A DNA stretch of 64,000 bases. Source: Fibrobacterales bacterium (GTDB taxonomy: Bacteria > Fibrobacterota > Fibrobacteria > Fibrobacterales > JAOPTW01). Of the stretch, positions 1 through 33,083 are shown one piece after another; the first letter of the stretch is position 1; each line of letters begins with the position of its first letter. Location: contig JAOPTX010000003.1 in NCBI GenBank assembly GCA_051532055.1, positions 153,064 to 217,063 of the forward strand. The letters are read 5' to 3'. The notes below the pieces were generated by a model, which worked only from the letters and a program-made list of their open reading frames with translations, was not told the origin of the DNA and did not search any database. The position numbers and the translations under genes were made by a program.

Positions 1-1
1 A

Positions 2-244
2 TTAACACTTGAGGAATACCAATCGGGAATAGGCTGGGTTTTTGTAGAAGAAAAAAATGTAGCAAATGAAGTATCGGATATATGGGGGTTGACCAGTTTC
101 CAGCCGACGACAGGTAAACATGGAATTATACAATTTCCTGTACAAATACAGCCAATTAATGAAATTAAATGGCGATTGAATGGTTCTCAATATGATATAC
201 CTGTGACCACAAACTCAATGAACACTTATAACTTAACTCAATAG
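2..244 (+). CDS. 3' end of an upstream gene cut by the window edge (hypothetical protein)
   Basis: Frame +2 is open from the window edge to TAG at 242-244 (own translation LTLEEYQSGIGWVFVEEKNV...NSMNTYNLTQ*). It ends 7 nt before the next same-strand start at 252. It is absent from the supplied track, presumably because it has no start codon. The antisense ORF 2..190 is probably its shadow. Confidence 0.4.
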   Translation, partial: LTLEEYQSGIGWVFVEEKNVANEVSDIWGLTSFQPTTGKHGIIQFPVQIQPINEIKWRLNGSQYDIPVTTNSMNTYNLTQ

Positions 245-251
245 GTAAAGT

Positions 252-728
252 ATGAAAATTTTATTAATTATGCTATTAAGTTTATTAGTTCCCTGTTTCT
301 CGAATAGTCAGGAATCTAAAAGCTTGGCATCCCTCATTGAGGCATTAGAGCTATCAGATAAAATGAAACAGGGTATGGAACTTCAACTTATTGAAACATT
401 GAAGAGCGTTAATGAGCCTAATCATAACGCTGTTGAAGAGGCCTATCAGTATATTAAATATGTTGATATTACGAGTGAATTTGTAGAAAGTTGGAAAGGT
501 AAATTCACGATTAATGAGATTCAAGAATTGGTCATTTTTTTCAAAACTAAAACAGGCAAGAAGTTATTCTATCAATTGCCCGAGATAAGATCCCACATGA
601 CAAATATTGGTAGTTTTTTAGGGCTTAAAGTATATGAAACATTAAATAAATACGACCCATCAAACTTTCCAATTAATGTAACAACATCAGAATATAAACA
701 AAAACTAAAAACACTTTTAAAAAGATAA
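252..728 (+). CDS. exported DUF2059-like protein
   Basis: N-terminal signal peptide (MKILLIMLLSLLVPCFSNSQ). The segment FTINEIQELVIFFKTKTGKKLFYQLPEI resembles the DUF2059 core (F-t-x-x-E-l-x-x-l-i-x-F-y-x-t-p-x-G-k-K-l). It abuts the giant gene directly. Confidence 0.6.
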   Translation: MKILLIMLLSLLVPCFSNSQESKSLASLIEALELSDKMKQGMELQLIETLKSVNEPNHNAVEEAYQYIKYVDITSEFVESWKGKFTINEIQELVIFFKTKTGKKLFYQLPEIRSHMTNIGSFLGLKVYETLNKYDPSNFPINVTTSEYKQKLKTLLKR

Positions 729-3700
729 TTGTCTATGAATGTAAATGCTCTTTATACAATCTTAATTCTTTTCATTTTTTCTATCAATGCGTACTCGGCC
801 TCTACTATAGGCAATTATGCGGAAATAGGTGATTATATAACTGTTTCGGAGTGGGGTGAGGTGTCTGCTTTGAATGCAGCAAAAACTAAACACTCTAATT
901 CATTTAACTACACCTGTTCTTTAGATGATAGTGAACGTGTAATATCACAGCCATACTTTTTTATTGAGGGAGGCTTTAAATATCTGTTTTTTTTCACTTA
1001 TGATGGGTCCAATAAATATGTGAGACTATATAATGCCACAACTCCAGGGAGTCTATTACCTGTTTTATCAAAAGAGGCTTTAGGCAATGGCCCTCATATT
1101 GTTATTGATACACACCTGTATATCTTTGATACTGATCATATTTCAGCATATACCTTAGCAGACCTTGCGAGTGGGGCTTTGAATGCTACTACAGTTACGG
1201 GGTATACATATTTAAGTCAAGCTCCAAATTTCTTTAAATATTATGAAAATGGCCAATTGGCTGATAAGTTTCAAATGAGTTATCCCAATGGTAAAATTGA
1301 AATATTCACCTTTTCAGATGCATTTACACTAGATGGAAAAAAGACCTATGGGGTAGATCTTGGAGTACGTTCTATTAAAAGTCGCCCAGAATATATTGTC
1401 GAAAAATCATCAAGTAATTCATACTTTGTGTCCATAGATAATTTAGGCGATATCATTACCACAAGTGCAGATGTTCAAGATGAAATTTGGCTTACAGAGC
1501 CATATAATAGTACATCTTTTGATGCAATTGATGTATACCCAGTTGGCGTTGATAACGAAGTTATTCAAATATTATCAAAGGATAATAAACTCTATAACTA
1601 TAACATTTCTTCCAATAAAATAATTGGACAAGAGCATACGTTTCTAATTGCTCCACAAGTAGTTAAAAACATAACAGGGAATACTATCAATTCTAGCACA
1701 ATCGAGTACTCTTCACCAAGCACTGCTTTTGCTTCATACACGTTTGGTGGGTTTAATAGACTTTGGGGGTATTTCCATCATGATGGCTCCTTTAGTTTAT
1801 CTCAATTTAAGGTGACTCCAGAAAAATATTCCCCCACTCTAAATGGACCTCTAATTACAAGTTTCCCCGCATCAGGAAATATAAATGTTACCTATGATCT
1901 TCTAATAAAAGATGCTGTTGGAACTATAGTTAAAACCTGGCCGAAGGCGCCCTTAGCATATGGACAGAATACAATAGATTGGGATGGAATTGACGATAAT
2001 GGAGTTGCAGCAGTCAGTAATAATTATATAATGTCTGCCTTATTTACTATTCCTGGTGGAACAACAGAGCAAGTGGATAAAAATTTCATTCTTGATAGAG
2101 ACCCTGTAACAGATGTTTCCTTAGATTTAATGAAAGGTATTCCAGATATTGAGGTAACAAGTCCTCAATTAGGATTAACAATTAATAATAACCGAGTATT
2201 TGTCTCTTCTATACATAAAATTAATCTTGATTTTTCAAATGTTATTGATGTTGCACCATTTACACAATCTGATCTCTCAGTTGAGCTAACATTACAAGAT
2301 ATAAATCAACCCGTTAAATCATATACCTATAGGTGGGATAAAACAACATTAAATCCTGTAACCCATAGTTTGACTTTAAATGGTAAAACACAAGGTGGCG
2401 TGAATATTCCTGATGGAATATATGATTTGAGTTATAAAGTCATTGATCAAGCAGGAAATGAGTCAACTCTACATTCAGGTTTTAAACTTGAAAATGATCC
2501 AAATCTATATGAAGGTATATATATACTACAAAATGATGTTTCAATTAGTGCAAGAGTTAATCCATTTTTTATTACCGCAAGCGATGCCTATACTGCTAAA
2601 GTTGATATAACGTTGACAGCCCCTCAAGATAAAGTGTATACATTAAATATGTATCTTATTGACGCCCAAGGCAACCAGCAAAGCCTTCCTGGTTTTGTTG
2701 CACAGCAAATCACGTTGTCTTCTGGTTCTGCTACCTATGCACAGACATTCGATTTCTCATCTATTACTCAAACGGGGATGAATCAAATAGTAATAGAGGT
2801 ACTTAATGAAACGTTTAATAAACAGGCAAAAAGTATTCCATTAATTCGTGACCGAATTGAGGCCACCATTATAAGCCCAGAGAATAATGAAACCATATCT
2901 CATAGGTTAGTTGAGATATCTGGTGTTGCAACGGCACCAACATTTGGAACAAAAAATTCAAATAGTATTACTTTTTATAAAGCATATTATTCAGAAGGTG
3001 CCCATACATTAAGTAGTTCGATTACGGAGAAATATAAATTATTCGAGAACATAGCTTGGAAGGCGTTGCCAGTACCATTAAGCCAACAGATTCGAAGTAC
3101 TGATCCTGTTTATAAGCAAATTAAACGGGAAATAGATGCAGAATTTCCAAATTCTAATATATCGGCAGTTGATGTTTCCACAAATGGTGTTTTAGCACTT
3201 TTTGAAAAAAACGAAATATTGAATCAGGAACAATTTACTGTCTTAATAATTTCATCTGAGTTGTTTTCTAATAAGTTGGATTCAGATGGTGATAATATTC
3301 CAGATGCAGTGGACAATTGTCCTTATTTAATTAATAGTGAGCAATTTGATTTGACTAATGATGGGATAGGTGATAAATGCCAGAGCCCTGTGAATAACCT
3401 TCTTGATTCTGATGGTGATGGAAAACTTGATATAGAAGATCTCTGTGTGTATCTAAGTACTGATGTAAAAAAAGATGATGATAATTCAGGACGGGGTGAT
3501 CAATGTGAGTTTATGAATTTACCTGATGATGATGGCGATGGGGTAGAAAATAGTATAGACAATTGTGTTTATCTACCAAATGAACCTCAAATGGATAATA
3601 ATAAAGATGGGATAGGTGATTTATGCCAAACAAATAGCGAAATATTTTCTTATGATTCTAAAGTTTTTAATTATGGCCCTTTTGAAAAAATAAATGCTGA

Positions 3701-6700
3701 ACTCATATTGATGGCAACTCAAGTTTCAAAAAATGTTGATCAGATGAGCCCAATAATCGTAAATCTTGACCCTAGTCATATTGATGCAGAACCAGAGTTC
3801 ACTCAATTGTCACTCACAGCTGATATTATTGGATTTACCACAGATATAGATATGACTGTAGTAAAAGGCCATGTTTCTGATGATAAAAATGGAGGTGAAA
3901 GCCATGAAGTTGTATTTGTACATCCTAAAGTTACGAACAGTACAGGCCCTGCTTCGCTTCTATTTTTGGGCAAAGACTATACTGATAGAACTGTTGATGA
4001 AGGAAACTACACTGCAATTATTGAAGCAAAAAGTAGTGAAATTGGTTTAATGAGACATTATTATCACTTTAGTGTGAGTATCCCTGAGCCTCCGACTAAT
4101 GATGATACACAACTACTTGTTGAACCAGGTCGTATACCTCTTGATTATACTGAAGGCTCCAAACCAAGAATTGATATTGAATTTGATATAAACAAAAAAT
4201 CAGATGTTAAAATTAAAATATTTCACAGTGCTGATTTAGTCAACCCAATCAGAAAATATTCTTTTACCAATAGCAGAACTGAACAATTATCATGGGATTT
4301 TTTAACTGAGCAAGGAGTATATATTGTTGATCAGTTAAATACTGATTCGCCTTTAGTTAATGAAAAAACTTTTGTAGTACAGCTCGTTAAAGGAACAGAT
4401 GTATTAGCAACCCAAAATGTAGTTATAGAAGAAGCAATACCTGAGATTACTTATGCACCAAGTATTTTGGAATACACTCCTAATGCTGCAGGAGTTTGGG
4501 AGGCGGGTATCCATTCAGGTTACAAATTTAAGGCACTCGCAAAAGGTGATCTTCAATTTATACCTAATAAAAATCTTAAACCGGGCATGGAGGTGAGTGC
4601 TAACCAAAAAGTAAGAGTATTTCCAGAAGTTCCTTATCGGATGACTTATTCAAAATACTATAATACTGCATCAATTTTTGCAAATTATGAAATAACTGCA
4701 GAGGGTAGACATGCTGGATATGGTGTATGTTGTTCGGGATCATGGACGTCGGAATTGGCAAAGGATAGTGAAAAAAATCTAATTAAAACTATCGATGGTA
4801 GTGGGCGCTTTGCTTCGACTAATGATGTGACTCCCCAATTTTCTAAAGACCCCAGTTATGTAGCAGGGGAATCAAGCCCTATCTGGTATGGTGATATTGA
4901 ACCATGGTTTGATCAAAGTCAACTGAGTTCTTATGATAAATGGTCTGAGTGCTTAGAGTTTCACCAAGAAGCGTTTGTTATGAACAAAAATAGTTTATCA
5001 ATTAATGAATTGTTATTCCAAGCACGTGTAATGGGGCAAGATGGAGAAGGTGATGATGCTTTTAAAGAAAGAAAAGGGTCGTTACAGCTAGGGGTTAATT
5101 TTGGAAAACTTAACGCTGGTTGTGGTCTAGATTTGGCGCAAGGATATCCAATACCACGATTAGAAAATGAAATGAAGACATGGGGAGCAGTAGGCTACGG
5201 TCCATTTTGGATGGTAAGATCAAATAATTGGAGTACCGACACGTATCATTCTCATAAATTTAATTATAGTAATTGGGATAGAGACGCTGGAGACCCACCA
5301 AGAAATCACGCGTTTTATCCCATGAAATATGTAAATGATTCAATTGACTTTACTCATCCTACCTTATATAAAAGAGATCTTATCATTGATGAACCAATAA
5401 GTTATCAAAATTATTTGAATTATTTGGATGGTGTTGCTGGGAATGATGAAACACTTTTACCTACAATCCCTGATGATTATCCTTGGGACGATGGTATATC
5501 ATTGGGTATGAGATTTGGAATGCGTGGATTTGCTTATACGCACAAAGATGATACTTATTTAAATGGTGGGTCGGGTAATGATGGCTTTACACATTTATTG
5601 CCTGTTATATACCCAAAGGATTTCATAGAAAACTACTATGTAATAGATCGACCTGATAAAGGAGAAACTTTAATTAATAAAATAGGCCATATGTATTGGT
5701 CCAATGAGCAGTTTAGTACCAATAACAGAGATAATATTGGAATATTCCCCATATTGAAAATTGACCTCTCAACTAAAGGGTATACGTGGGATGATATTGA
5801 AGTAGGTTATCCAATTGGTGATGGTACGGGTTTAAATATAGAAAGAAGAAATAATGAACCTGTTGTTGTTACCTATCGTAATGTCTACGAAGAGAGTGAA
5901 ATTGTCGGCAACGATATTGTTATGAGTGTACCTACAAATTTTCAATCAACAGGAGATGCTGCTGACGATGAAATACTCTGTTTTCCTATAAACCAGTGGA
6001 TTAGTGGGACAGAAGGTCTTTTTGAAGAGTTATTACGTAATGTGAAATCAAGAAGTGATGTCGTTCCACCCGATGAATACCCATATGTATTAAAAGAAAC
6101 GTTGCAATTTTCTGCAATTCGACCCTTATCAACCTATATCAATTATGATCAAACTATTGAAACATTGGACCCGAATGATTTTGCGCTCCATTTTAATGAA
6201 GATATTTTTTATAACTTCACCCAATCAGAGATTAATAATTCTGGGTGTCCCAATCCATCCCAATACTCATTAGATGATGTGGTTTATAAACTTACTAATA
6301 GAAATGCACCTATGACCGCTAATTATTGGAGTTCTAAAGATGATCCAGCTTTTGCTGTATATGATGGGTATCTCTATGGTTCAGGTAAATTTAACGAGCA
6401 TGGCTTCAAAACTCAACAAAATGCAATGTCAGAAAATGGTAATGGCTACCGAGGCCTTGTACAAGAGCTCATAAGTAATGTTAATGTAAACTTGGCAATC
6501 CCAACAGAGCAAGGGCCTCAAATTGTATCACCTTTTGTGAATAATAATGGAGCTGTAGAATTTAACTCAAATATTTTACCCTCAAGTCTTGAATGGGTTA
6601 TTGATGTATATCATCATGATGGGGAACAACTTAATGACGCTCTTGAAGTTAAGAATCAAAATGAGGAGGAAATGTTCAATCTAGGATTGGCACTTGATAT

Positions 6701-9700
6701 TACACCCAAGAATTTTGTTGAAATTAGAGGTGCTATACCTAATGCTATTCCTGTGGCTGAATCTGGTTTAAGTAATGATATACACTTTAAGTCTTATCAA
6801 CTTTTTGCTTATGTACCTGTAAAAGAAAAAAATGAAGCGGAAGAAAATTATTCAGAGGCTGAGTATCGATATGAACAAATCTCAGTAAATAAATACTTTC
6901 GGTCTGACCTAGCACTGGATAAATTTGAAGGTGATATCCTCCCACAACGAACGTTAGACTTATGGGACAACAGTGAAACTGGTTCAGTGAATCCCGTATT
7001 AGGATATTGGGATGTGACTCATTTAAATGGTCTTTATGATATTGTATTAAGGATTACGTATGTTGACAATAATAGTGGTAGTACCTATCTCGTAAAAAAA
7101 CCAATTAAAATACAAGTAGGAACAGAATTAGTTGCTGGACTAGAACCAGTAGTTCAGTCTACTTATAAACGTGCTGAATTAAATATGCCAGATGGCTCAT
7201 TTACTTCAGGAGATGTACTTTCAATGTATCCTGTTTCGTATAAGGATTTGTCATTGGGTGATGATTTACCTGATGTTAAACCAATTGGTCCAGTAATAGA
7301 AATTAAAACCACTGGTAGTACTAAAAAGTTCGAAGGTACATCGAAGCCGGTAATAACCTATCAATATAGTGCTCGTGAAATTTTTCAAATGAATGGTCGA
7401 TTGGCGGACTTTGAATTGTACAAAAGTACTAGCGACATCTCTGCATTACGAACTGAATTGCTCACATTTATTAGTACCTATAATGTCTATATGTTGAATG
7501 AAGAGGGGCAATTGGATGAAATGCCAACAATTGGAACACTATCTTCTCATGATTTACCTTCAGAGATTGAAGAACTATCAGTACTACTCACTGCGCCAGT
7601 TTCACACTTTTCTTGGGCTGTTGTGCTTGAAAGTTCAACTCTACCAACATTAACTCATGCCATTATCGAAGGTACGGATGTAATTGTAAAAGGTACGTAT
7701 GGGACACCTATAGTAGGTACCATTCCAACGGATTTGGAACTATATATTCATAAGTTCAATTCTCGTTCTGAGAGCCCAACATATATTAGAGGTATATGGA
7801 GTCCGGTGATCAACAAAACAGGTACTTTTGAATTAAGAATTCCTATTTCGGAATTCTATCCTGGTGATAATTATATATATGCGTCTTATGCAGTGCCAGC
7901 ACCTCAGGTAGCTCAAAATTCAGCTAAAATAAAAGTTGAGATCGAAACTGCACAATTACTAGTAGAAGATATTAAAGCGTACCCATCAGTTTTTGAACCC
8001 CATTGTGAAAAGAATAATTACTCGCTTTCATTTGCTGCGTCTAAATCAGGCATTGCAACACGGTATATACTTGATAACTTTGATAATGTAGTTTCTAAAG
8101 AAGTAGTTGCTATAGACTATGGTATTAATAGATTTAAATGGGATGGGTGTGTAGAGCAATCAACATTAAATTATGGTGAGTATTTAGTTAAATATATTTT
8201 TGAGGGTGCCGGCAGTCAAAACTTTGTCATGGGATTAAAGTTGACAGCATCTGATCAAATTAAATCCGTAAAGAGTATTAATGTAAAGTATTCGAGGTTT
8301 TTGCCTTCAGTCACAAATTCTCGACATTTACAGCACTTTAAAATTTATACACACGGTATTGATGCTGCTTCTGATTTAACCATTAATCTGAGTAGAGAAA
8401 GTGATGCCACTAGTTGGACGCTCACACCAGAATTATGGGAAACAAAAAACAATGAGTTTGTCTATCGTGCTACTTGGAACGGTCTCAATGGAAATACTAT
8501 TGAAGTAGATGATACCTACAAGGTAACTGTTAGCCATTCTACTCAAGGCGTGGTTACTCCATTAAAAAAGGAATTTGAATTATATAGCTCCATTCCCCCA
8601 AGTGTAGCTGTTACCCATAATTTTGGATCAGGTGATGTGCCAAGTACGGTACCAGCAATAGAAGTGCTCTTAACAAATAGTGTGAAAATGGGTGTTGTAC
8701 TTTGGTTAGAATACCTTAATGGTGATATTTTCTCAACTGAATTAGGCAAGAAAGGAACTGCAACAACAAGTGATCGCTATGACGTTGTAAATTCTGGTTC
8801 CAAAAGATATACTGTTAAAATGAAAAATAGCGAATTTCCAACAAGAATATTTGCACAATGGGAAACCGAAGAAGGAGAGTCTGGTTTAGTATCTTCTACA
8901 ATATCGGTAAATTATAATCCTGTTTTAACCGGGATCAATCATGGTAGCCTTGAGATTCAACCTCAAGTGTCTGATGTTTTTAGGTCACATTTTGAAAATA
9001 GAGGTCGGTTTACCGCATATAGCAGATCCACGTATGTTGAGTTTACGAGCTCTCGAGCTGGCGAGGTCCGGTATGTTGTAGAACGTAATGGACAAGTCTA
9101 TCGTAACGACAATTTAGCAATTAGAAGAGGACCGAATAAACTGTTTTGGGATGGAAAAGATGACCAAGGAAACTATGTACCTAAATCAGGGATATATACA
9201 ATTAAGGTCTTTACTCAACCAAGTGACCCAAGTGGTACTGAACAACTAGTTTCATCGTGTACTTATTCAGTTGATGTATATATTGTTCCAGATATAGCTA
9301 TATGCAAAAGTTCTGATCCGATATACACTCAAAATAAAATTACAGATCCCAATAGATTTGTAACTGGATTAATCACAAAATTATCTCAACCATTAGTTGG
9401 GATTACCAATGTTATGGAGTTATCACCCGAAGAAACAGTGGGGTATATGCAATATAATCCTAATGGAATGGTGGTGATTGTAAATGATATTACGCCAAAG
9501 GAGATATTTGATGGTACTCGAGATAATCCTCTATTTAGCTATATAAGGTCAGGCGGTAATGCAGTATTTATCAATTCTTTTCCATTTGCTCACTATGTAG
9601 ATCAATTCGGTAATATTCAAAGTAGCTTAGAACTTTCTCTACTCTTATTAGGTGAAAATGAACAGCAAGGACTTACAGCATTACAAGATAGAATGAATGC

Positions 9701-12700
9701 ATTGTATGCATTGTCTGAAGGTGTCACTCAGTTTGATGGGGCACAAGTTGATGACCTTTCTGCTGTGGTGACCAGCGGAATTTTGAATGCTGGGTTAATA
9801 GGTACAGGTGTACCTCAAAGCTACTTAGTTGAAAATGGTGGTTTGTTTAGTCCTCAATTATTTACTGATCAACAAACATTACCCAATGGTGCTCTCGAAA
9901 CATTTATTCATTCAGGTTACTTTAAGCCAAAGTTTAAAGCTACTGAATTACATAAATCTGGCGCATTTCTAATTATGCATCCATTTGGTTTTGTGATGGA
10001 TAATAGTACTGCAGGGATTCAAAAAGAACAAGAAGTTACTGAGGATGTAGCAAACTCAGTATACAGAAATTTCTTTGCAAATGATTTATATATCTTGTCT
10101 AGAGATGTGAAAATTACTCATAATGATGACAAAATTTTACATAGCGAATCTATTGATATATCAGTAACAATAAACTATAAGGGCAAACACACAATACCTT
10201 CAGTGGAGGTCGTGTTAACAGACCTCAATAACAGCAATTGGACTCAAACACTAAACTATTCTAATATATCTATGGGTAGCAGTGAATCTGAAAGAACACA
10301 AACTATCACCGTTCCAATAGATGCATTAGCAAGTTTTGATAGACATATAGTTACTGTAGATATTACACCGTTTTCTATTAATGTACCTCCTCTGGTGATT
10401 AATGAAGAAGTAGTGTATAATAATCAAACTCAGGCGGTGTATTATGTACAATCAAATATAGCGCCTACTCTTACTATTAATAATATTACTAGTGGATACT
10501 TTGATGGCTTAATCACAGGCCTCGCAACGGGGCTCCCATACGAAGTAAGTGGCTCAATTGTAAATAGTCACGGGCAAGGTGATATTAAGCTAACTACAAT
10601 TCTCAAAGATAATGCCGATAATGGTATTAAATTTTATAGTAGTACTCTTGTAACTACACCTAATTTTACACAAGAAGTATCACCAACTGTAGATCTAGAC
10701 CCTACACATAATTACTCAGTATCTATATCAGCCAAGGATAAATATGATAATCAAACAGATGTTGAATATCTTATCAATATTGATGGTGAACTACCCGTAA
10801 TTACCCAATTGACGTGTGACAATTCACATGTTACCAAAATATTTGGCACTGAAGCGGTACATTATGTCATTGATGATATTGCACGATTTACCTTTGAAGT
10901 ATCTGATAATTTAGGGTTAAAATCTTACACACTAAAACGAGGGCCTGCAGTATTAGTTGATGAGGTATTAAGTGGTGTAACTTCTGGCATTCAGACTTTT
11001 ACATTTCCTACAACTGAAGGAGACTTTACATTTATTACCACTGATAATGCTGGTAATGAAATGAAACGAAACTTCACTATAGTCAATGATGTGGAGAAAT
11101 CTGTGGTTCGTATTTTAAATGTTGGAAATACCTTAATGCATCAAGTCGTTGATGGTACCATAACAATTTCTGAGGATGCATTTATGTATGATGAACCTCT
11201 ATTTGAACATTTCCCATTAGTTGTGAGAGGAACAGATGAAGAAAATGAGTTTATTGAAACAGCACGAAATGATTTCGCTACTATTGGTGTAAATGTCGAT
11301 GAACTTCCAGGATTCAAAATTGGTGACTATAGTACTCATTTTATGCATACTACGACAAAGGCAATGTTCCTAATAGATATTTTTGAAGAACATTTAAATT
11401 CTGTAAAAGTGAAAATTAATGATGATCCAGCTGTTGATGCGAGTACTTTAGATCCATTTCAATCATTATTACCAGCCTCGATGCTCCCAATGTATACTAA
11501 TCATAAATATCATAGATATATTGAATTCGATGGGCTTATTGTAGGGGAAGAATATAACATTAAAGTCATGGTTGAGGATGAATCGGGTAATGTCACTACA
11601 ATAGATTTAAAGTTGGGTAATGCAATAAATAAATCTTATGTTGAAGACCCTCAAGGAGATAGAAGCTCTGCTATAGGTCCCGATTTTGGTGAAGTGTACG
11701 TTTCAACCGCTGAGCATACAGGATTTGGCTCACAAGAAGGTGGAGCATGGGTGTACTTTATGATTTATAGTTACAACAGTGACTTTGCTAACCAAATAAC
11801 TGACAACTATCTGTACATTGATGCTGATAAACTTGAAGTAACTGGCGCACAAGATGTAGGGAGAAACAGTCAAAACTTTGATGGGTTTGAATATCGAGTT
11901 ACATTTGGTTCTGTCGATGTACTTGATAGTGGAAAAGCTACAAATGTTACCCTTGAAGAATGGAATGGAACTGCTTGGGCTGCTTTAAGAGCTACAACAG
12001 AATGGAATGTAAATGCCTCTATACAAATAGATGCTAATCAAATTAATGATGTATGGACTCCACCACGTGGGGAGGGGCATCAGGTGACTCCATCAGATAA
12101 AATAGCGAAAGCACCAGGATCTGTTATAGAAATTGGGGTAAGATTAAATAACATGTATGCAAAAAATGACATCCGTTGGTTTTTAGATGGTGAGTATGAT
12201 GATGTATATAATACAAATACAACCCAGCCTTTCTTGTTTAAGTATATAACAGACGGGTCAAAATATATTGATGGTATCACTAAAGATTGGTATACCGATA
12301 CTCCATTTAATGCATTGAGATCAGATATACTTGTGAGTGCTAAACCTTCAGAAAAAGATATACCAATTCAAAACACATGGGAAGAACAGAAAATATCATT
12401 CTCTATTCTGAATAATGGTTTTACAGATGTTGGTAATGTTTCCTTACGCTATTTTATAAACCTTGGTGGTTGTACAGATGTACGAACATATTTAGATAAT
12501 GTTAATGAAACATTTTGGAAGATAACAACTGATGCCCCAATTCAGGCTAATACACTGGGTAGATATAAAGGATTAGATGATGATATCTATTTTGTTGAAT
12601 TGGAATTTATTACCCGTGTATTAACACCAGGTGCTGAGTTGAAAGGGATCCCTTACTTTACTCTTAAAGGGAATGGTTGTACGACTAGATTCGAAGATAA

Positions 12701-12782
12701 TTTTAACAATCAACTTCCAAACAATGTTGAACTCGTTAATGAGCATAACCGTTCATTATTAAATTCTCAAATTACAGAATAA
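729..12782 (+). CDS. giant secreted multidomain protein (about 4015 aa) with FlgD-Ig-like modules, thrombospondin type-3 Ca-binding repeats and Ig/CARDB-like modules
   Basis: Uninterrupted 12-kb ORF. The likely real start is ATG 735 ([23 protein letters not shown] signal peptide). At least four 'x-W-D-G-x-D-x-x-G-x-x-v-x-x-G-x-Y' FlgD-Ig-type signatures are present ([50 protein letters not shown]). TSP3 repeats [15 protein letters not shown] / [14 protein letters not shown] / [14 protein letters not shown] lie at nt 3279-3629. 'D-x-AGN' Ig-like modules also occur. Confidence 0.9.
   Translation: [4017 protein letters not shown]
3279..3629 (+). repeat. thrombospondin type-3-like calcium-binding repeats (coding, inside the giant protein)
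   Basis: DxDxDGxxDxxDNC(P/V)Y motifs with paired Cys recur over about 115 aa: [35 protein letters not shown] ... [35 protein letters not shown]. Confidence 0.75.
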
Positions 12783-12793
12783 GATATCATATT

Positions 12794-15700
12794 ATGAAAG
12801 ATTATAAAACTATGAAAAATGTAAATAATATCAGTGCTTCAATATTAACTGTTCTACTCGTTGTCATATTAGCAGTCCAACTTGGATTTTCAAGTATCAT
12901 ACGATCTAATGAGCAAGGTATAAACGGAAACCACAATTTTACTTCTGGTGGCCCTGGTGCCCAAATTAGCACTCTGAATGGAAATATGGTTATTACTTCA
13001 ACTGCTGCTGATATTTCTAGGGCTCCCTTAGGTATCCAAGTAAGTCGAAGTTATAATTCTGGGTGGAGAAATGCAACTCAGGCCCACCTAATGGATGTAC
13101 AAAAAGATGGAAAATTTAAAGATGTTGACCGTACTCCTGATGCATTTGATTTTGCACCAAATTTTCTTCAGAGAACATTCTATTATAGACCTGACGTAAC
13201 AGAGAATCCATCAGGATACCAAACATCAGCTCTACTTGCAGGAGCATCAGCTACGTATGCAATAGGTGGTTCGATATTAAACTATACTATAGCACAGCAA
13301 AAAGAGGCCGCCGGTACAACACCGCAACCTAAAACTGGATTAGATCACGCAGCGACAGCAATGACAATTATTAATACTGCTTTTAGCTTAAAAACTCTTG
13401 CAGAAAGCAATGGTGATTTTAATAATGTTCAATCATTTCAAGCAATTAATAATTTATCATCATTTGTTTTAAAGTCAGTGACCGAAAAAGCTACTAAAGA
13501 GACAATTGGTCAAATATCAGGTACTATCGGTGCTGCTCTTACCATGTATTCTGCAGCCAAAACTCTATCAAATGTAGAAGATGGCTCACCAGGAGATGAA
13601 GCTCAAAAGATAGCGGCTGTTACTCAAATTGTTGGTGCCATGGGTAGTATGATGGCAGCAGCGAGCGCGGCTTCTGCAGCTACAGGAGTGGGAATCGCCA
13701 TAACAGCGGCAGTTATAGTTGTTCAGATAACTGCTATGTTAGTAACAATTCAAGAAGTACTTGACGCAAATTTAGATATTGCAGAGTATCGACCTCACCC
13801 ATGGCTTTTTGGGGTTAATGGTTATGTGATGCTCGTGGGGACAAAGTATGAGGATGAAGAGGCTCAATATTCAAATATGTTCGGCGGATATTCGAGTAGA
13901 GAAACCTACCAACACTGTACAGCAAGAAATAAAAATGGTTGTTCTAACTACGAAACTCGTTGGAGAGGTGTTGGCGACCGTTCATCAGGTCATCCTATGA
14001 CTGATATGCAGCTGGTTAAGTCTGACGGTGGATCAACGCGGTTTGTTATGGAAAACCATCATTATCAAATACATAATGATGGCATGCAAGATATTAGATA
14101 TTATAATTATAAATCTTTATCAAATGCAAATTTTAAAGAAATATACTATGTGGATTACCCCCCGTATCAGACAAATGATTGGACTAATGGTATACCGGTT
14201 CATACATCAGATTTATTAGGTGTTGGTGACTATTATATGATAAAAGAACCTAATGGTACTGTAGCGAAATTTGGTGTCTCCAGTGATAAAGGAATATACA
14301 GGCATACTGCACGTAATTATCCAAGAGAAATGTATTGGTCTTTTATAGATGAAATTTCTCATACTATATCAGGACAAGTTATAACGGTTAACCGTGATGC
14401 AACGAGTAAACAAATTACGGAGGTCACACATAGTGCAGATACACGAAGGGTAACTATTGATAGGTCTCCAACTCAAGAAGTTGTTAAAGTAGTAGATGGC
14501 ACAACAGAGTTATCAAAAATTACCTATGATTTCGGCCTTATTGATTACACTTTTTTTAAAGAGACAAAGTATAGAAATGACCCTATCCTTGATGCTTCAG
14601 GAAATCCCGTAATAGATGATGAATCAGGAGAAACAGCAACGAAGACCGTTTCGTATGTATATGAACACAAAGCTCAAATGAAAATGATAACAAAAGAATC
14701 TCGCCAGGTTGATGCATCAAATAGTGCAAAAGATTTGATTAAAAATTATGTGTATGATGAATATGGTAATATGACACAGATAAGTACAACAAATGGTAAT
14801 ACTTACAATTATAGCTATTCCGAACTTGATACTCCTACTGAGGGATTTGTAATGAATGTACTCATGGAAAATGGCGCTAAAACAACATCGTTAAATAAAA
14901 AGTTTACGTATACTGGCTGGTCAATCGGATCAGCTGATGGTTATCAGGATGGTTTAAATGGAACTGTTATGACAACTGACATTGTGACAAGTCTCACACA
15001 CCCCGATCTACCAAATAGTGACTATCCAAATAAACATACTATCTTAGAAAAAACAACGTTTAGGGTATCGCAAGATACTTCAACAATTAGACAAATTAAA
15101 AATGCAACTGAATTTTTAGCAACGGGTACGTCGTCAGAAGAGGTAACGAAATATGGTACTGTGGGAATGCAATTATTGTCTCATCAACTTGGATCTTTTG
15201 GCATTGGTCCAATGATAAGTTACCGATATAATGGTGATTTGTTGACAACGACTATTAAGAGAGAACAATCAAACCTTAATATAGATCCAATAATAACCTC
15301 TTATCACTATGATCACTATGGTAATCAAATAGCAGTATTAAATTCTTCTAAAATAGATATGGATAACTACGATGCTGCCTTTTTTGCTATGCATGCAAAC
15401 CTAAAACCCTATGATTGTATAAACGAAATAGAAGTGTGCGAATGTGATAATCCAAATTATGACCCTGATATTCATCCAGTTTCAGAAAGATTTATGGAGT
15501 GCAAAAATCCTGATGTTCTCAATTGTTATAGTAATTTTCCTACTCTGGTCGACTGTAGATCGAGAGATGTAAACTTTTGTACCGATGTTAATTCAAACCC
15601 AGTAGCCTGTTTGGTTGTTGATCCTCTGTTAAGAAAATGTGAAGTTGTAGAAGAGCCTATTGTAGGGTGCACTGAAGATATATTCGAGCAGAATGTTGAG

Positions 15701-18700
15701 GCTAACAAACAAGCCATTTATACACAAATTAATACACAATTTGGAATCGATTATAACTTACTAACATTTGAAGTAGTAGATATTAACACCTACAGTTTTT
15801 ATGATAGTAAACAAATAGCGGGTAATTTTTATAGCAAACGGTCACTAACAACAACTGAAAGAACAGATCAACGTACAAAGTTTGAATCTAAGTATCCTGG
15901 TGAAATATTGACGGATGCAGATCTTGACATGAGTAACAAAGAGATCTTAAATCCATTGTTTGATCCTAATGCTCTTTATTTACCAGGGATTTTAAACGAG
16001 CAACATACCAGTAGACTTCATCCAGATGAAAATGAACTTCTGAGCTATTCTTTTGGTACTAAATATTCATTGAATACTGATTATCTTCCCATTTCTGAGC
16101 ATAGAATAATAAATGGAAATAGCGCTGATACTGCTCTTATTCTGGTAAAAGAAACAGCATATAATGATCCGGCTAATAGATTTGCTCCAACAGGGAAAAA
16201 AACGTATATAGATGATGGCATGTATGCATATGACTCAACAAAATACGACGCTAAGTATCATCAATACCCTGTAGAAAATCATGTTTATAAAGGTGTTTTT
16301 GATATAAATACAACACCAGCTGCGGTGGGTGATTTTGTTACTACCTTGGTATATAACCCAAAAAACTTTCTTGAGACACAAACTAATCCCAATTTGCAAA
16401 CCACTTCTTTTACTTATGATGATGTAGGGAGGGTTGTCAGCACCTTAAACCCAAATGGTACTACTATTATTACAGAACATAACGATGCTCAAAATTATGT
16501 TATGCAGATCAATTCAACAGGTCAAAAATCAAAAATTGTACAGGATGGGCTCGGTGTTGATAGTACTTTTATTACATACGATAATACTGGTACTCTCACA
16601 CAAACATCAAAAAAAGTCTATAATCAATCAGGTCTTATTTATCAACAAGACAATGATGGACGTGAACTTTTTAATTATTATAGTGACGCTGGCAGATTAT
16701 ACATATCTCAGGTACCAGAAGTAAAGGGAGAGTATACCCGATATATTCAAACAAACTTTGAGTATGATTTTTTAAATAGAACAAAAACTACTATTGATCC
16801 TTTACTTAGAAGAACAATAGAGCACTCTAATAAAAACGGCCAGGCAATTAAAATAGAGTCTGAAAAAACGGGTGGAGGCTTTATTACAACCCAATATATC
16901 TATGATAATTTTGGAAATTTAGTCGAGACAATTGATCCTAATGGCAATAGTGAAACTATGGTATATAATCACATGCAACAACCGACTACGGTGGAGTATG
17001 CTGATCAATATAAAATCGAGTATTTTTACACAAATCAAGGGCGTCTAAAGCGTTTTGATAAAACAGACCTTTCACAAACACCTACAGTCACTACATCTAT
17101 CAAGTACGGTAGGGACGGACTTGATAGAGTTATTGCCGATACCGTTGTGTCAGGGTTAGAGCAGTTGGAAACTTATTACACCTATGATAATGCAACGTTT
17201 AATACTACTACTTATGCATACCCACAAAAACTAGTAGATATCACACGTGATAGTTTAAAGGTTAATTTTAGTTATGATAATTTTGGGAATTTGACTGAAA
17301 AGGTAACCCGTATTTACCCAGGGGCAATTTTTACTTCAGGCCCAACCTATTATGGGTCAATTGGTTATGGTTATAGAGATGATTTTAGTGTTGAAACAAT
17401 GACTATAAATGGTGACCTCGCACTAACATATGGTCGCGACCCCTATTTTAGAAATAATACTATTTCTGGTTCATACAAAAGTGGGGCACTGTTTGATATT
17501 ATTAAATCGGTGACTTTTACGCCTAATAACATGGTGGACCAAGTCGTGTATGGGAATAATATTACCACTACCTATGGGTATGATTCCAATAGGCCTATTT
17601 TAAAAAGTATTGAAGCGACAATGGATAATGCCCATGAGCCATTTTATAAACATATAATTACTAATTTAGGAAAGACAGGAAACATAGAGAGAATACAACG
17701 CCACAATGGGACTGAGGCGGCTTATGAGTATGATAAGTTAGATCGCCTTATATCAGTTGGCTATCCTGATGGTGGTGTTGGGGGGAATAATCTTGTAATG
17801 GCCTATGATAATAATGGTAATATTGAGAGTTTTACCCATGATTTTGGTCAGATAGATTACTTTTATAATACTACAGGAAGTGGCGCTACTATTAAACAAC
17901 AAAATACTCTTATCAAATCACATTCGGCACTAAATGGTTGGGCAGTATATGATTATGATAAAAATAAAAATCGAACGTCAACAAGTTATTACAATAAATC
18001 GAGTGACTTAATAGCCGGCAACACTAATTGGCATGTACGACATGAATATGGATTTGACCTACTGAATAGAATGAAAACCTATGTTAAAAAAACTAAGTCA
18101 GGGCAAAGTGGCATTGAGGCTGTAAGTGAGTATCTCTATGATTATGATATTGATGGAGCTAAATTGGTAACCCATAGAAAAAATGGTGCAGGTTTATACG
18201 AAAAACAAAAAGAGTTTGTCTATGAATGGCCTAATGTAGTGTACGAAGCAGATACAGTTTCTGGCGATAGTTCTTATTTTGTATTCTGGGGTAACGAGCG
18301 TATTGCTGAAGTTAAGATAGAGAGTGAAATGCCGGAAATCTATTTTTACCATAATGATCACCTTGGTACTGTTAACCAGATAACTACAAATGAAGCAATA
18401 CCTTCAGTTGTTGCACGATATACTTTTGATCCTTATGGAAATTTAGAGTCATATCAGGGAAGTTATCACACAAATTATTTTTATACCACCAAAGAATGGG
18501 TTCCTGAAATGGGTATGTACTATTTTGGCGCTCGGTATTATGATCCGCATACATTGCAGTGGATGAGTACAGACCCTCTATTTGAATTTAATTCTCCTTA
18601 TAGTTATGTTGGTGGTAATCCACTTAGATTAATTGATCCTGATGGTAAAGACGCCATATTAACGAAAAATGATGTTGATAATACAATTACTATTGAGTCT

Positions 18701-19222
18701 ACAATTTTTATATATGGGGATGAGGCTTCCGCTGATGTTGCAGAACAGATACAGGGTAATATTATGGACGCTTGGGACAATAAAGAATACATGGATGAAG
18801 AAACAAAGGTAAAATATAAGGTAGTATTAAAATTAAAAGTTGTATCTATGGGGAAAGATAAAGATCCTCTAGCTGCTCATGTTGCAAAGAGAGATGGTAT
18901 TAATTTCATTAAGATAGCTGACCCCAATACTTCTTATGTGAATGCAGCGAATGGTAGAACTGGTGAATGGCGAGGCCCTTCTTCATGGGAAGACTATGAT
19001 AATCCTGCTGCACATGAATTTGGGCATTTGATAAGACTAGATGATAAATACTTTTCTAATAAAGCAGGGTATCCTGCTCATCCAGGGTGGAAAGGGACGA
19101 TTATGGGGGAATCACCAGGTGAAGGTGTTGTAACAGGAAAAGTAATGTGGAATTTACTTAATAAAAGAAAATATGATGTAAATAATCAATTTTTTATCAA
19201 TTCTACAACAACTTATAGGTAA
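12794..19222 (+). CDS. RHS/YD-repeat polymorphic toxin with N-terminal membrane anchor and C-terminal zinc-metallopeptidase-like toxin domain
   Basis: Many YD repeats are present (YDEYGNMTQIS, YHYDHYGNQIAV, FTYDDVGRVVST, YIYDNFGNLVETIDPNGN, YEYDKLDRLISV). The RHS-associated core reads YFYHNDHLGTVNQIT...YTFDPYGN...MGMYYFGARYYDPHTLQWMSTDP...NPLRLIDPDGKD. The N-terminal hydrophobic helix is ISASILTVLLVVILAVQLGF. The gene starts 11 nt after the giant gene. Confidence 0.95.
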   Translation: MKDYKTMKNVNNISASILTVLLVVILAVQLGFSSIIRSNEQGINGNHNFTSGGPGAQISTLNGNMVITSTAADISRAPLGIQVSRSYNSGWRNATQAHLMDVQKDGKFKDVDRTPDAFDFAPNFLQRTFYYRPDVTENPSGYQTSALLAGASATYAIGGSILNYTIAQQKEAAGTTPQPKTGLDHAATAMTIINTAFSLKTLAESNGDFNNVQSFQAINNLSSFVLKSVTEKATKETIGQISGTIGAALTMYSAAKTLSNVEDGSPGDEAQKIAAVTQIVGAMGSMMAAASAASAATGVGIAITAAVIVVQITAMLVTIQEVLDANLDIAEYRPHPWLFGVNGYVMLVGTKYEDEEAQYSNMFGGYSSRETYQHCTARNKNGCSNYETRWRGVGDRSSGHPMTDMQLVKSDGGSTRFVMENHHYQIHNDGMQDIRYYNYKSLSNANFKEIYYVDYPPYQTNDWTNGIPVHTSDLLGVGDYYMIKEPNGTVAKFGVSSDKGIYRHTARNYPREMYWSFIDEISHTISGQVITVNRDATSKQITEVTHSADTRRVTIDRSPTQEVVKVVDGTTELSKITYDFGLIDYTFFKETKYRNDPILDASGNPVIDDESGETATKTVSYVYEHKAQMKMITKESRQVDASNSAKDLIKNYVYDEYGNMTQISTTNGNTYNYSYSELDTPTEGFVMNVLMENGAKTTSLNKKFTYTGWSIGSADGYQDGLNGTVMTTDIVTSLTHPDLPNSDYPNKHTILEKTTFRVSQDTSTIRQIKNATEFLATGTSSEEVTKYGTVGMQLLSHQLGSFGIGPMISYRYNGDLLTTTIKREQSNLNIDPIITSYHYDHYGNQIAVLNSSKIDMDNYDAAFFAMHANLKPYDCINEIEVCECDNPNYDPDIHPVSERFMECKNPDVLNCYSNFPTLVDCRSRDVNFCTDVNSNPVACLVVDPLLRKCEVVEEPIVGCTEDIFEQNVEANKQAIYTQINTQFGIDYNLLTFEVVDINTYSFYDSKQIAGNFYSKRSLTTTERTDQRTKFESKYPGEILTDADLDMSNKEILNPLFDPNALYLPGILNEQHTSRLHPDENELLSYSFGTKYSLNTDYLPISEHRIINGNSADTALILVKETAYNDPANRFAPTGKKTYIDDGMYAYDSTKYDAKYHQYPVENHVYKGVFDINTTPAAVGDFVTTLVYNPKNFLETQTNPNLQTTSFTYDDVGRVVSTLNPNGTTIITEHNDAQNYVMQINSTGQKSKIVQDGLGVDSTFITYDNTGTLTQTSKKVYNQSGLIYQQDNDGRELFNYYSDAGRLYISQVPEVKGEYTRYIQTNFEYDFLNRTKTTIDPLLRRTIEHSNKNGQAIKIESEKTGGGFITTQYIYDNFGNLVETIDPNGNSETMVYNHMQQPTTVEYADQYKIEYFYTNQGRLKRFDKTDLSQTPTVTTSIKYGRDGLDRVIADTVVSGLEQLETYYTYDNATFNTTTYAYPQKLVDITRDSLKVNFSYDNFGNLTEKVTRIYPGAIFTSGPTYYGSIGYGYRDDFSVETMTINGDLALTYGRDPYFRNNTISGSYKSGALFDIIKSVTFTPNNMVDQVVYGNNITTTYGYDSNRPILKSIEATMDNAHEPFYKHIITNLGKTGNIERIQRHNGTEAAYEYDKLDRLISVGYPDGGVGGNNLVMAYDNNGNIESFTHDFGQIDYFYNTTGSGATIKQQNTLIKSHSALNGWAVYDYDKNKNRTSTSYYNKSSDLIAGNTNWHVRHEYGFDLLNRMKTYVKKTKSGQSGIEAVSEYLYDYDIDGAKLVTHRKNGAGLYEKQKEFVYEWPNVVYEADTVSGDSSYFVFWGNERIAEVKIESEMPEIYFYHNDHLGTVNQITTNEAIPSVVARYTFDPYGNLESYQGSYHTNYFYTTKEWVPEMGMYYFGARYYDPHTLQWMSTDPLFEFNSPYSYVGGNPLRLIDPDGKDAILTKNDVDNTITIESTIFIYGDEASADVAEQIQGNIMDAWDNKEYMDEETKVKYKVVLKLKVVSMGKDKDPLAAHVAKRDGINFIKIADPNTSYVNAANGRTGEWRGPSSWEDYDNPAAHEFGHLIRLDDKYFSNKAGYPAHPGWKGTIMGESPGEGVVTGKVMWNLLNKRKYDVNNQFFINSTTTYR
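18647..19219 (+). other. C-terminal toxin tip of the RHS protein (about 190 aa, metzincin/snapalysin-like HExxHxxxxxD)
   Basis: It begins right after the core-terminating DPDG motif (nt 18635-18646). HEFGHLIRLDDKY lies at nt 19013-19051. A candidate Met-turn (GTIMGE) follows downstream. Confidence 0.7.
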
Positions 19223-19705
19223 TTGGTGGCCTCTAGTTTACATTTCCTAGTAGTGATAGCTTTTCTATTTATTATTGGGTGTAATCATAAATCCAATGTT
19301 TGTGAAAGTGATGTTAATAAAAAAAACATTGACCACGAATATTTAGGTGGTGGCTTTATAAAGTGCTCTTATCAGGTAATAAATGATAGTAGTCATTTTG
19401 AAAAGTATTACCTTTCTTCCGAAACTTTTTACCACAGTAAAAATCTGGGTGGTCTTTCGGCATTTTATAAATCTCCTCGACGTGACTATGCTATATTTGT
19501 TAAAAATGAGGATGCTCAGCTATATGTATTTGATTTGGAAAGTGGTGAGGAAAAAATTGTAGATTTTGATGTAGCTATTTTCCCTGTTGAAGTGAAGTGG
19601 TCACAAAATAGCAAGCATGTAGTTGTTCATTATCGAAATGATGATAAATTTTTGGTAACGAAAACAGTTAGAATTGATTTATCAACAGGGGATGCAGAAA
19701 AGTAG
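19223..19705 (+). CDS. putative cognate immunity lipoprotein of the RHS toxin
   Basis: It sits immediately after the RHS stop (TAA 19220-19222). The frame contains no ATG at all, so the start must be TTG 19223 or GTG 19226, with an AGGT Shine-Dalgarno-like element at 19217-19220. A lipobox is present (LFIIGC, Cys20). Size (160 aa) and position are typical of toxin-immunity pairs. Confidence 0.7.
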   Translation: MVASSLHFLVVIAFLFIIGCNHKSNVCESDVNKKNIDHEYLGGGFIKCSYQVINDSSHFEKYYLSSETFYHSKNLGGLSAFYKSPRRDYAIFVKNEDAQLYVFDLESGEEKIVDFDVAIFPVEVKWSQNSKHVVVHYRNDDKFLVTKTVRIDLSTGDAEK

Positions 19706-20075
19706 GAGTATGAGATGCTAAAATTATTTCCCTGATTTTAAAAACTCTCTCCCTTGAGGGCTTTTTATGTCTCTATTTACTTAAAAAGTCCTGACCAAAA
19801 CTTAGGAATTTCAATATTATCAAACTATTCAATATCAGACTCTTTGGCTGTTTCAGAATTATATAGAGGGTTGATAGTAATATATCTACAGCGCCAAAGG
19901 CTATGATTGCCGATAGATGACTGTGTAATGGCTGAACATATGTCTTACCGTTTTTTTAGCATCATAAGTATTACTGAATTTTTCAGTTATCATTAAGAGT
20001 TTGTTCCTAACCGTTTAAATAGTTATTGTCTTATTATTGCTTAATGTTACAGGATGTCAAACAGGTATTTAAAAC

Positions 20076-32672: not shown

Positions 32673-33083
32673 GTAGCCTTTCGGCAGTATAGCCTTTTCA
32701 ATGTTCATTCAATAGTTTAAGACTGTTACCCCTTATTTTCAATGGCGTAGCTGTCTTAAGCTTTCCTTTACACAATTGCATATTAAGCAACCTCTATCAT
32801 CATATTCCGTTGGATTGTATCCACCGGTATCGGTATCGTGCGTATATAGATGAGAATTAAGTCTTCTACTCATGCTTACTTAAAGTAAATAAATATAAGA
32901 TTGTCGTCCAGGGTGTGTTCTAGGTGGCTTTATCCTCGTTATTCACTTATATTGCCCAAATTGGATGATAATAATGTAGGTGAAAATAGCTATAGCTTAC
33001 TAATAGTAATGATAAAAATACCTAACTTTAGTTTTTTATGTCGTATATTTAAACATGAACTATTTGGATTGGGAAATCTAGTT

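Follow-up and report, generated by a model that had tools for sequence, protein, structure and literature searches.

A giant secreted protein and an RHS polymorphic toxin with a predicted Sec signal form a conserved gene pair in Fibrobacterota

We analysed a stretch of 64,000 nucleotides from a Fibrobacterales bacterium (assembly GCA_051532055.1, contig JAOPTX010000003.1, positions 153,064 to 217,063 of the forward strand), hereafter called the window, to which all coordinates refer. At its start a gene for a giant secreted protein is directly followed by a gene for an RHS polymorphic toxin and by a small gene for a putative immunity lipoprotein (Table 1). The giant and the RHS gene recur side by side in every other distinct locus recovered, and the module has so far been seen only in Fibrobacterota. 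We give about an even chance to the reading that the two genes form a Sec-exported polymorphic toxin module, accompanied by an immunity gene, in which the giant would supply adhesion or targeting in trans.

The pairing was followed from both sides. An exhaustive phmmer search of 1.84 billion representative proteins with residues 1-600 of the RHS protein yields 22 sequences (E up to 1e-3), the window's own protein included. These relatives are mostly RHS proteins of 1,950-2,330 aa, and they share the whole N-terminal module at 31-39% identity. Scanning GTDB (one genome per species) with an alignment of the N-terminus gives eight loci, all from metagenome-assembled genomes (MAGs) of Fibrobacterota/Fibrobacteria that originate from lakes, a river and a wastewater plant. 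In seven of seven contigs with an RHS homologue a giant gene lies directly upstream on the same strand (3760, 5083, 5095, 4975, 4290, 3796 and at least 1117 aa), and in all eight GTDB loci a long same-strand open reading frame (ORF) takes up all upstream sequence that is available and runs to the RHS start. The giant homologues are collinear with the giant of the window: the alignment with locus L002 spans 2528 aa at 25% identity (E 6.5e-180), L021 and L009 follow at E 3.6e-153 and E 9e-135, and the rest range from ~1e-15 to 3e-99. A reciprocal search of JGI metagenomes with the C-terminal block of the giant shows five loci, one duplicating a GTDB locus. Wherever the downstream gene could be reached in these giant-side loci (4/4), its product is an RHS protein that has the N-terminus of the family (hmmsearch E 1e-92 to 1e-212). 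Overall, the pair is kept in 18 of 18 other distinct loci at 20-30% identity of both proteins. The earlier note on this DNA had named a lack of conserved synteny as the outcome that would speak against a joint role of the two large genes; what we find is the reverse. A word-indexed search (RHS aa 1-560; giant aa 1850-2600) missed even the query's own protein, and its negatives for such low-identity or low-complexity queries do not indicate absence; with a profile of giant block A3 it returned one fragment.

The two genes are also tightly joined. Among the 16 other loci with junction sequence, 14 have an overlap of giant stop and RHS start (ATGA, GTGA, TGATG or TAATG), and the junctions without overlap measure 0 nt in L022, 11 nt in the window, 15 nt in L021 and 18 nt in L002. 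Two MAGs carry two giant/RHS pairs each (L015 and L010 in JADKBN01; L008 and L012 in DAOPYN01). In L015 (JADKBN010000029.1) the giant gene falls into two ORFs (1236 and 2154 aa) and the RHS gene is in fragments, reflecting either a pseudogene or long-read frameshift errors. A phage-borne cassette was also considered and rejected, no relatives being present in viral contigs.

The N-terminus of the RHS protein sets the family apart. Signal peptides were judged from hydrophobicity and from the family alignment, in which 11 homologues have small residues at positions -3/-1, at a constant distance of five residues from an invariant NEQG. The resulting sites are of the signal-peptidase type (SWA|G, AFA|N and AQA|G in homologues, GFS|S in the RHS protein of the window). 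The earlier note took the protein to be Sec-anchored; this is probably wrong, because the family alignment shows a cleavable signal peptide with a canonical site five residues before NEQG. The segment that follows has the consensus ...H.Y..GP.EVVSNLNGNL...PLGI.LER.YNSHWR, and the invariant columns N39-D101 all fall inside it. Its SNLNGNL part gives a weak match to DUF6531 in 4 of 11 family members (best E 1.2e-3), and the strands at residues 49-88 are predicted by AlphaFold2 (AF2) with a predicted local distance difference test score (pLDDT) of 63-84. [quoted passage not shown] No PAAR, prePAAR or DUF4150 match was found in the RHS protein or in the N-termini of 11 family members at E up to 1, and Pfam searches of these sequences revealed no adhesion domain in cis and no NHL, FN-plug or SpvB match. 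Our reading of the sequences is that a cleavable Sec signal stands where T6SS Rhs proteins have the N-terminal region that determines their secretion, and that the mature protein begins at the plug.

Past the seal lies a family-specific insert that ends in a hydrophobic segment or hairpin at residues 289-325 (window 13658-13768; Kyte-Doolittle 2.45). Such a segment is found 10-60 aa before an invariant PW..VNG in 13 of 14 homologues, where it closes a poorly conserved stretch of ~230 aa. The beta-rich region behind it is probably the plug together with the first turns of the cocoon. The motif S-x-H-P-M-x-[ED]-[ML]-x-L and a GG, at residues 398-413 (window 13985-14032), are invariant or nearly so and include a conserved acidic residue. 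The AF2 model of the RHS N-terminus, built on an 11-sequence alignment, has a mean pLDDT of 57. Foldseek finds no PDB match for it below E 1e-3; the best matches are weak (SpvB-N 6p0x at E 1.6e-3, YenB 5kis_A at E 1.8e-3, and also 9c4k_P; TM 0.18/0.32), with RhsP, Tse15 and teneurin next (E 0.04-0.07). The N-terminal sequence profile (A1) found nothing in the PDB.

The remainder of the protein is a recognisable Rhs core. A family profile (A5) was made from 12 full-length members aligned over ~1950 aa. Against the PDB its best matches are 7q97 (E 1.5e-46), RhsP (7e-40), the S. bongori Rhs core (8e-39) and Tse5 (2e-38), then teneurin-like proteins (9e-30) and TcC (1e-16), with TcB not found; judged by sequence, the Rhs core of the family is closest to T6SS-type Rhs. 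The core ends in YYDP...STDP...NPLRLIDPDG, in which D1927, D1948 and G1951 are invariant in the A5 alignment. The cocoon is interrupted by a variable insert of 73-213 aa across the family, too small for a beta-propeller. The ten cysteines of this insert in the window are peculiar to this copy: at the same site 11 homologues have 0-2 cysteines in inserts of 73-202 aa.

Variation is concentrated behind the DPxG motif. N-terminus and core are conserved, whereas of 10 C-terminal domains scanned at least 8 are unrelated to one another. Family member P0006 ends in a barnase-type Ribonuclease (E 4e-13) that is followed by a Barstar gene, P0014 carries Ntox43 (E 7e-16), several others have glycine-rich hydrophobic domains and several have domains of unknown type. 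The toxin domain of the window, a putative zincin, has no Pfam or PDB match and shows no relation to the C-termini of the homologues. Cassette swapping is seen directly in P0006 and P0007, where the linker is shared and the toxins differ (a barnase-type RNase against an unknown domain). The shared pre-toxin linker of these two proteins (from L006 and L003) reads LPDPG..PPISMPSVD..ESP.NTLLFG.PAD.KTAFSYASQGRTKDW.

A small gene that adjoins the RHS stop or overlaps with it is present in all 10 other loci examined, and its product is predicted variously as cytosolic, as a multi-pass membrane protein or as a lipoprotein. Such a spread of predicted immunity-gene types would suit toxins with periplasmic, membrane and cytoplasmic sites of action. 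The 160-aa lipoprotein of the window has no Pfam or NCBIfam match and no counterpart in the other loci. Because this candidate immunity protein is a lipoprotein, the predicted zincin probably acts in the envelope. The toxin/immunity logic proposed in the earlier note is thereby upheld, the locus being polymorphic with unrelated C-terminal domains and small genes downstream. As far as sequences can tell, variable C-terminal toxins and an adjacent putative immunity gene, the two hallmarks of a polymorphic toxin system sensu Zhang et al. 2012, are both present. Past the immunity gene, loci L002 (17102-25383) and L021 (19105-25961) have two further large genes in common, encoding proteins of 1183/1162 aa (32% identity) and of 1577/1459 aa (30% identity, with Flg_new_2). 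They are absent from the window and may be a subfamily-specific extension of the module.

The giant has a signal-peptide-like N-terminus by hydrophobicity. Going by its recognisable domains, it is most aptly seen as a secreted multi-module protein, calcium-binding and rich in beta sandwiches, that carries binding-type domains and no recognisable enzyme, TcA, two-partner secretion (TPS) or type IX secretion system (T9SS) sorting domain. Its thrombospondin type-3 (TSP3) region shows visible DxDxDG..D..D.C motifs and matches COMP (3fby, E 6.6e-16) and thrombospondin-2 in the PDB. Of the label 'multi-Ig/TSP3' given to the protein earlier, TSP3 is borne out; for multi-Ig there are just two detectable FlgD_ig domains. 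Two further blocks are shared with other giants, in which conservation is strongest at aa 1856-2240 and 3583-3984. Block A2 has no Pfam or PDB match. Block A3 has 21 invariant columns and was found in all 17 loci tested by hidden Markov model (HMM); its C-terminal part (~window 12380-12740) resembles family 3 carbohydrate-binding modules (CBM3), with a profile match to module 2wnx at E 4e-4. Searching the giant of the window, three homologous giants and blocks A2/A3 against Pfam shows nothing past FlgD_ig, PKD, TSP3 and a weak CBM30, and no VRP1, TcA receptor-binding, neuraminidase-like or TcB-binding match was obtained for the four giants in Pfam, NCBIfam or PDB sequences. A crude Chou-Fasman scan calls zero helix-favouring 100-aa windows in the giant, with the limit that the control, a region of the RHS protein that is helical by AF2, is not called helical either. 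'Long-form' giants (L003, L004, L006, L008, L010, L012-L017, L020) have ~1,300 extra residues past A3, and most of them end in ...NANAPxGxxxxVDNLRWxP right at the overlapping RHS start, L012 and L013 with a variant ending. The giants of the window, L002, L007 and L009 are without this extension.

Table 1. Features of the cassette and its two large proteins in the window.
Feature	Position	Strand	Basis or remark
Upstream ORF, 3' end	1..244	+	80 codons visible; no Pfam match; no counterpart in related loci, none of which covers the upstream side of its giant gene
Signal-peptide protein, 158 aa	252..728	+	hydrophobic N-terminus; sub-threshold DUF2059 match
Giant secreted protein, 4015 aa (from ATG 735; 4017 aa from TTG 729)	735..12782	+	one of the two components of the conserved pair
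FlgD_ig Ig-like domain, giant aa 388-431	1896..2027	+	Pfam PF13860 E 1.1e-12, two stretches; NCBIfam FlgD-type aa 389-444
Thrombospondin type-3 calcium-binding repeat region, giant aa 846-969	3270..3641	+	Pfam TSP_3 E 3.6e-11
Conserved block A2, giant aa 1856-2240	6300..7454	+	phmmer against other giants to E 2e-59
Second FlgD_ig copy, giant ~aa 2782-2847	9078-9275	+	NCBIfam FlgD-type match
Conserved block A3, giant aa 3583-4015	11481..12779	+	phmmer against other giants to E 1e-54
RHS polymorphic toxin, 2142 aa	12794..19222	+	RHS_repeat PF05593 E 7e-11
Predicted cleavable Sec signal peptide, aa 1-34	12794..12895	+	hydrophobic segment aa 8-39; ...LGFSS|IIRSNEQG
Mature N-terminus, DUF6531-like 'seal' strands, aa 37-101	12902..13096	+	NEQG..H..(x)..SNLNGNL..PLG..R.YNS.WR
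Family-specific helical insert, aa 140-325	13211..13768	+	AF2: six low-confidence helices
Family-specific beta-rich region, aa 329-579	13778..14530	+	AF2 pLDDT 70-93; motifs PWxxxVNGY, SxHPMx[ED], GG, YYLVKEPxGT, YWA
Cys-rich insert in cocoon, aa 875-959, this copy only	15416..15670	+	10 Cys
RHS-associated core with aspartyl autoprotease motifs, aa 1878-1951	18425..18646	+	TIGR03696 E 1.1e-15
C-terminal toxin domain, 191 aa	18647..19219	+	putative zincin metallopeptidase; HEFGH at aa 2074-2078 (window 19013-19027)
Putative cognate immunity lipoprotein, 160 aa	19223..19705	+	lipobox-like FIIGC; 0-nt gap to toxin gene
Terminator-like hairpin and T-run, probable operon end	19745..19770	+	hairpin 19745-19760, single consensus match

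No marker of a known delivery system was detected around the pair. Among the 29 non-overlapping window ORFs of at least 100 aa, none matched a Pfam domain of the PAAR, VgrG, Hcp, Tc, TPS or transposase kind, and NCBIfam searches of the cassette and the ORFs downstream gave no such marker either; five intergenic ORFs of at least 50 aa were listed and not HMM-scanned. No T6SS, VgrG or Eag genes were found in the window or in the flanks of related loci. Neither filamentous haemagglutinin (FHA) repeats nor an Omp85 partner of the CdiB/TpsB type were found in the giant, the RHS protein or the window ORFs scanned. The claim that the 64 kb hold no delivery marker is confirmed by these scans. HMM comparison of the five cassette products with PAAR, VgrG, Tc, SpvB and TPS models likewise gave no match, the caveat being the weak Foldseek resemblance of the N-terminal beta region of the RHS protein to SpvB-N and YenB.

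How the module might work can be sketched as follows. The RHS protein would be exported by Sec, lose its signal peptide and fold into an Rhs cocoon around the C-terminal toxin, which the aspartyl autoprotease motifs would release. The giant would likewise be exported by Sec, its gene usually being coupled to the RHS gene in what looks like translational coupling, and it appears to be a long, beta-rich array of FlgD_ig/PKD, TSP3 and CBM3-like modules without an enzymatic domain. From the linkage of the genes we infer that the giant is an obligatory partner, which may give in trans the adhesion or targeting that WapA and teneurin-like toxins carry in cis. The cocoon might be held or displayed by it at the surface of the cell, on the polysaccharide substrate or on vesicles, and be brought to neighbouring cells in this way. 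The role of surface scaffold or translocator that the earlier note proposed for the giant is likewise suggested by gene linkage only. In support of this division of labour, no adhesion domain was found in cis in the RHS protein, and all recognisable modules of the giant are of binding type. RNase-type toxins have to enter the cytoplasm, which would call for a translocation step; for this, or for contact with the membrane, the helical insert with its hydrophobic segment is the best candidate. Vesicles or lysis are possible ways past the outer membrane of the producer.

A stronger version of this explanation, which we regard as possible and on balance doubtful, is that giant and RHS protein make up a new dedicated system for short-range or contact delivery without a T6SS, a distinct trafficking class next to T6SS-Rhs, Tc, WapA/TLP and CDI and confined to Fibrobacterota. 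The giant would then dock the cocoon through the N-terminal plug and the helical insert and carry it to target cells, and the hydrophobic insert would take the toxins, cytoplasm-acting RNases included, across the target membrane.

Several observations weigh against the main reading of a joint, Sec-exported module. The identities of giants and RHS N-termini correlate only loosely (Pearson 0.70, Spearman 0.28) and the correlation is partly driven by near-identical loci; some pairs are discordant, L003/L004 for example (57% against 30% identity), a mixed result that falls short of strict co-evolution. The helical insert is predicted at low confidence by AF2, and its hydrophobic segment could retain the RHS protein in the inner membrane of the producer. 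For block A3 of the giant, AF2 with two sequences reached a pLDDT of 33, too low for a fold search. As to the route across the outer membrane, no T9SS C-terminal sorting domain (TIGR04183/TIGR04131; NCBIfam, E up to 0.01) was detected in either protein and no TPS domain (Pfam, NCBIfam), and a folded Rhs cocoon is large for the secretin of a type II secretion system (T2SS). T9SS is the route proposed for surface enzymes of F. succinogenes. The related loci do not go beyond the giant genes on the upstream side, the apparent giant start of L020 being internal, and a dedicated exporter may be encoded upstream of the giants, beyond the reach of these loci. A T6SS, finally, is present in at least one member of the Fibrobacterota (PMC4814513).

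Other explanations of the pair were weighed as well. The genes might be linked and their products independent, with the giant an ordinary surface adhesin or fibre for polysaccharide particles and the RHS toxin a mere operon-mate that acts alone, secreted or vesicle-borne, as is supposed for signal-peptide-only RHS toxins of the T2SS class. The modules of the giant are indeed generic binding types, the CBM3-like domain among them, and the identity matrices of the two proteins are only loosely concordant. Signal-peptide-only RHS toxins have been listed before, also in Fibrobacteres (PMC3482391), and teneurin-like proteins work without known machinery (PMC13018210). Nonetheless, both genes stay together in 18 of 18 loci, mostly with overlapping junctions, at an identity of 20-30%, which is difficult to account for without functional coupling; moreover, each RHS copy in both two-copy MAGs has its own giant, and the giant-side searches found only RHS-linked copies. 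We consider independent action rather unlikely. A toxin complex (Tc, or ABC toxin) seems improbable to us. Here the RHS protein would correspond to a fused, TcB-TcC-like cocoon, with the giant as an analogue of the A component that binds targets and forms the translocation channel. The large partner gene immediately upstream, a cocoon that encapsulates the toxin and would release it by autoproteolysis, and the top Foldseek matches of the N-terminal beta region (SpvB-N 6p0x, YenB 5kis_A, 9c4k_P) are in keeping with this. A length of ~2,000-2,300 aa, far above that of T6SS Rhs chains in the PDB (~1,100-1,900 aa), is comparable to TcB and TcC combined. In addition, a TcdB/TcaC class with signal peptides was listed in Fibrobacteres by Zhang et al. 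(PMC3482391). The Foldseek matches are weak, however, barely better than those to RhsP, Tse15 and teneurin, and neither the RHS protein nor the giant nor three homologous giants give an HMM match to SpvB, FG-GAP propeller, TcdB_mid, VRP1 or TcA_TcB_BD. With the family profile, the E value for T6SS-type Rhs is better than that for TcC by 30 orders of magnitude, and TcB is not found. No beta-propeller is detected, the detectable domains of the giant are beta sandwiches, and no helix-favouring window was called in it, albeit by a crude and insensitive scan. Unlike Tc complexes, both proteins here have predicted Sec signals and immunity genes are present; Tc toxins are not known to have immunity genes.

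Least probable of all, and in our view very much so, is a cargo effector of a T6SS with VgrG, PAAR or Eag partners elsewhere in the genome. Several features are shared with T6SS Rhs effectors (P. laumondii Rhs1 7Q97, RhsP, Tse5, Tse15, S. bongori Rhs): the Rhs core is most similar to theirs (E 1.5e-46 to 1e-38), and both have the RHS-associated core with its double aspartyl-protease motif, a DUF6531-like cocoon start and an encapsulated polymorphic C-terminal toxin with an adjacent immunity gene. Among T6SS Rhs effectors, helical 'clade' domains at the N-terminus are on record, and Tse15 is a precedent for an N-terminal helical domain accompanying the toxin. T6SS and Rhs toxins also coexist in Chitinispirillum, a member of the Fibrobacterota. 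Other features differ. A Sec signal is incompatible with cytoplasmic loading onto a T6SS. All family members aligned over their N-termini have such a signal with a signal-peptidase site, where T6SS effectors have prePAAR, a transmembrane domain and PAAR, and no PAAR, prePAAR, VgrG or Eag match was obtained in the proteins or in the 64-kb window. The helical hydrophobic insert sits inside the plug here, the equivalent of the autocleavage motif is degenerate, lacking the P and E of PVxxxxGE (PMC8636562), and the conserved neighbour is the giant exoprotein, never a vgrG or eag gene.

Parallels to a Sec-exported module are found elsewhere. Teneurin-like proteins (TLPs) are Sec-dependent YD-shell toxins whose delivery mechanism is stated to be unknown; they are reported in six phyla, Fibrobacterota not among them (PMC13018210). 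TLPs, WapA and the present family are alike as Sec-dependent YD/RHS-shell polymorphic toxins with a variable C-terminus, an immunity gene and no recognisable delivery machine, and the family profile matches the TLP structures 9pt5 and 9ifo (E 9e-30), a match confined to the C-terminal core. The difference is that TLPs and WapA carry adhesion or anchoring parts (BIG, TTR, TIP, FN-plug, NHL, wall-binding repeats) in the same polypeptide, whereas the RHS protein here is without such domains and a separate giant gene is invariably linked. Contact-dependent growth inhibition by CdiB/CdiA is alike in function and logic, with a giant exoprotein, a polymorphic C-terminal toxin, a downstream immunity gene and cassette swapping. 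There, however, the toxin is at the C-terminus of the giant rather than on a separate RHS protein, and no TPS, FHA or Omp85 was found here.

The lack of a delivery marker is thus not a novelty by itself: Sec-dependent RHS/YD toxins without machinery are already on record (WapA, the TLPs, PMC13018210, and the T2SS class, PMC3482391), structures of such YD-shell toxins are available for the TLPs, and signal-peptide-only RHS toxins of the T2SS class were catalogued in silico in 2012 by Zhang et al. (PMC3482391). What appears to be new is the obligatory giant partner, the N-terminal module (signal peptide fused to a plug with a helical hydrophobic insert) and the restriction to one phylum. In the literature searched there was no description of the giant/RHS pair, of the N-terminal module or of the phylum restriction. 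How RHS/YD cocoon toxins without T6SS or Tc machinery reach their targets is a stated open question (PMC13018210, 2026), on which the module offers a concrete handle in the form of a linked partner, a plug-adjacent signal peptide and a conserved hydrophobic insert. It also extends interbacterial toxin warfare to the Fibrobacterota, environmentally and agriculturally important polysaccharide degraders in which competition is almost unstudied, and it defines two protein families for which Pfam has no model, one formed by the conserved giant blocks and the other by the N-terminal module of the RHS proteins.

Our ORF map reproduces exactly the coordinates, strand and gaps claimed earlier for five adjoining same-strand (+) ORFs: a partial one to 244, then 252-728, 729/735-12782, 12794-19222 and 19223/19226-19705. 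The gaps are 7, 0 (or 6), 11 and 0 nt, with alternative starts for the giant (TTG 729 or ATG 735) and for the fifth ORF (TTG 19223 or GTG 19226). ORFs of 4017 and 2142 codons in DNA of 34-36% GC cannot be due to chance, and both have homologues elsewhere. Upstream of the giant, the 158-aa ORF reaches E 2.8e-4 against DUF2059 (21.3 bits, below the cutoff of 23.6). It has no record elsewhere and no match in the related loci, which stop short of the upstream side of the giants. Terminator-like matches across the region are not more numerous than in shuffled sequence, and for the hairpin at 19745 only the position is suggestive.

Three same-strand ORFs follow past the terminator-like site. The first (20076-20852, 258 aa) has a signal peptide and the C-terminal end ...LSAGLRVQF, typical of outer-membrane beta-barrels; the second (20961-22031, 356 aa) is lipoprotein-like (LYSGC) and the third (22129-22626) encodes 165 aa. 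None of them has a Pfam or NCBIfam match or a counterpart in any related locus, and they are therefore not counted in the unit. GC content is 0.34-0.37 in the first 22,700 nucleotides (cassette and these three ORFs) against 0.38-0.45 in 22700-64000, as might be expected of an island or of acquired DNA.

The rest of the window is Fibrobacterota-like in content, with GH5 and GH30 among its products. It encodes a 1613-aa GLUG/Flg_new_2/M26-N-like protein (42242-47083) and three proteins with Fib_succ_major domains (27159-29522, 32901-34757 and 55458-57974). These four appear to be large secreted proteins typical of Fibrobacterota and unrelated to the cassette.

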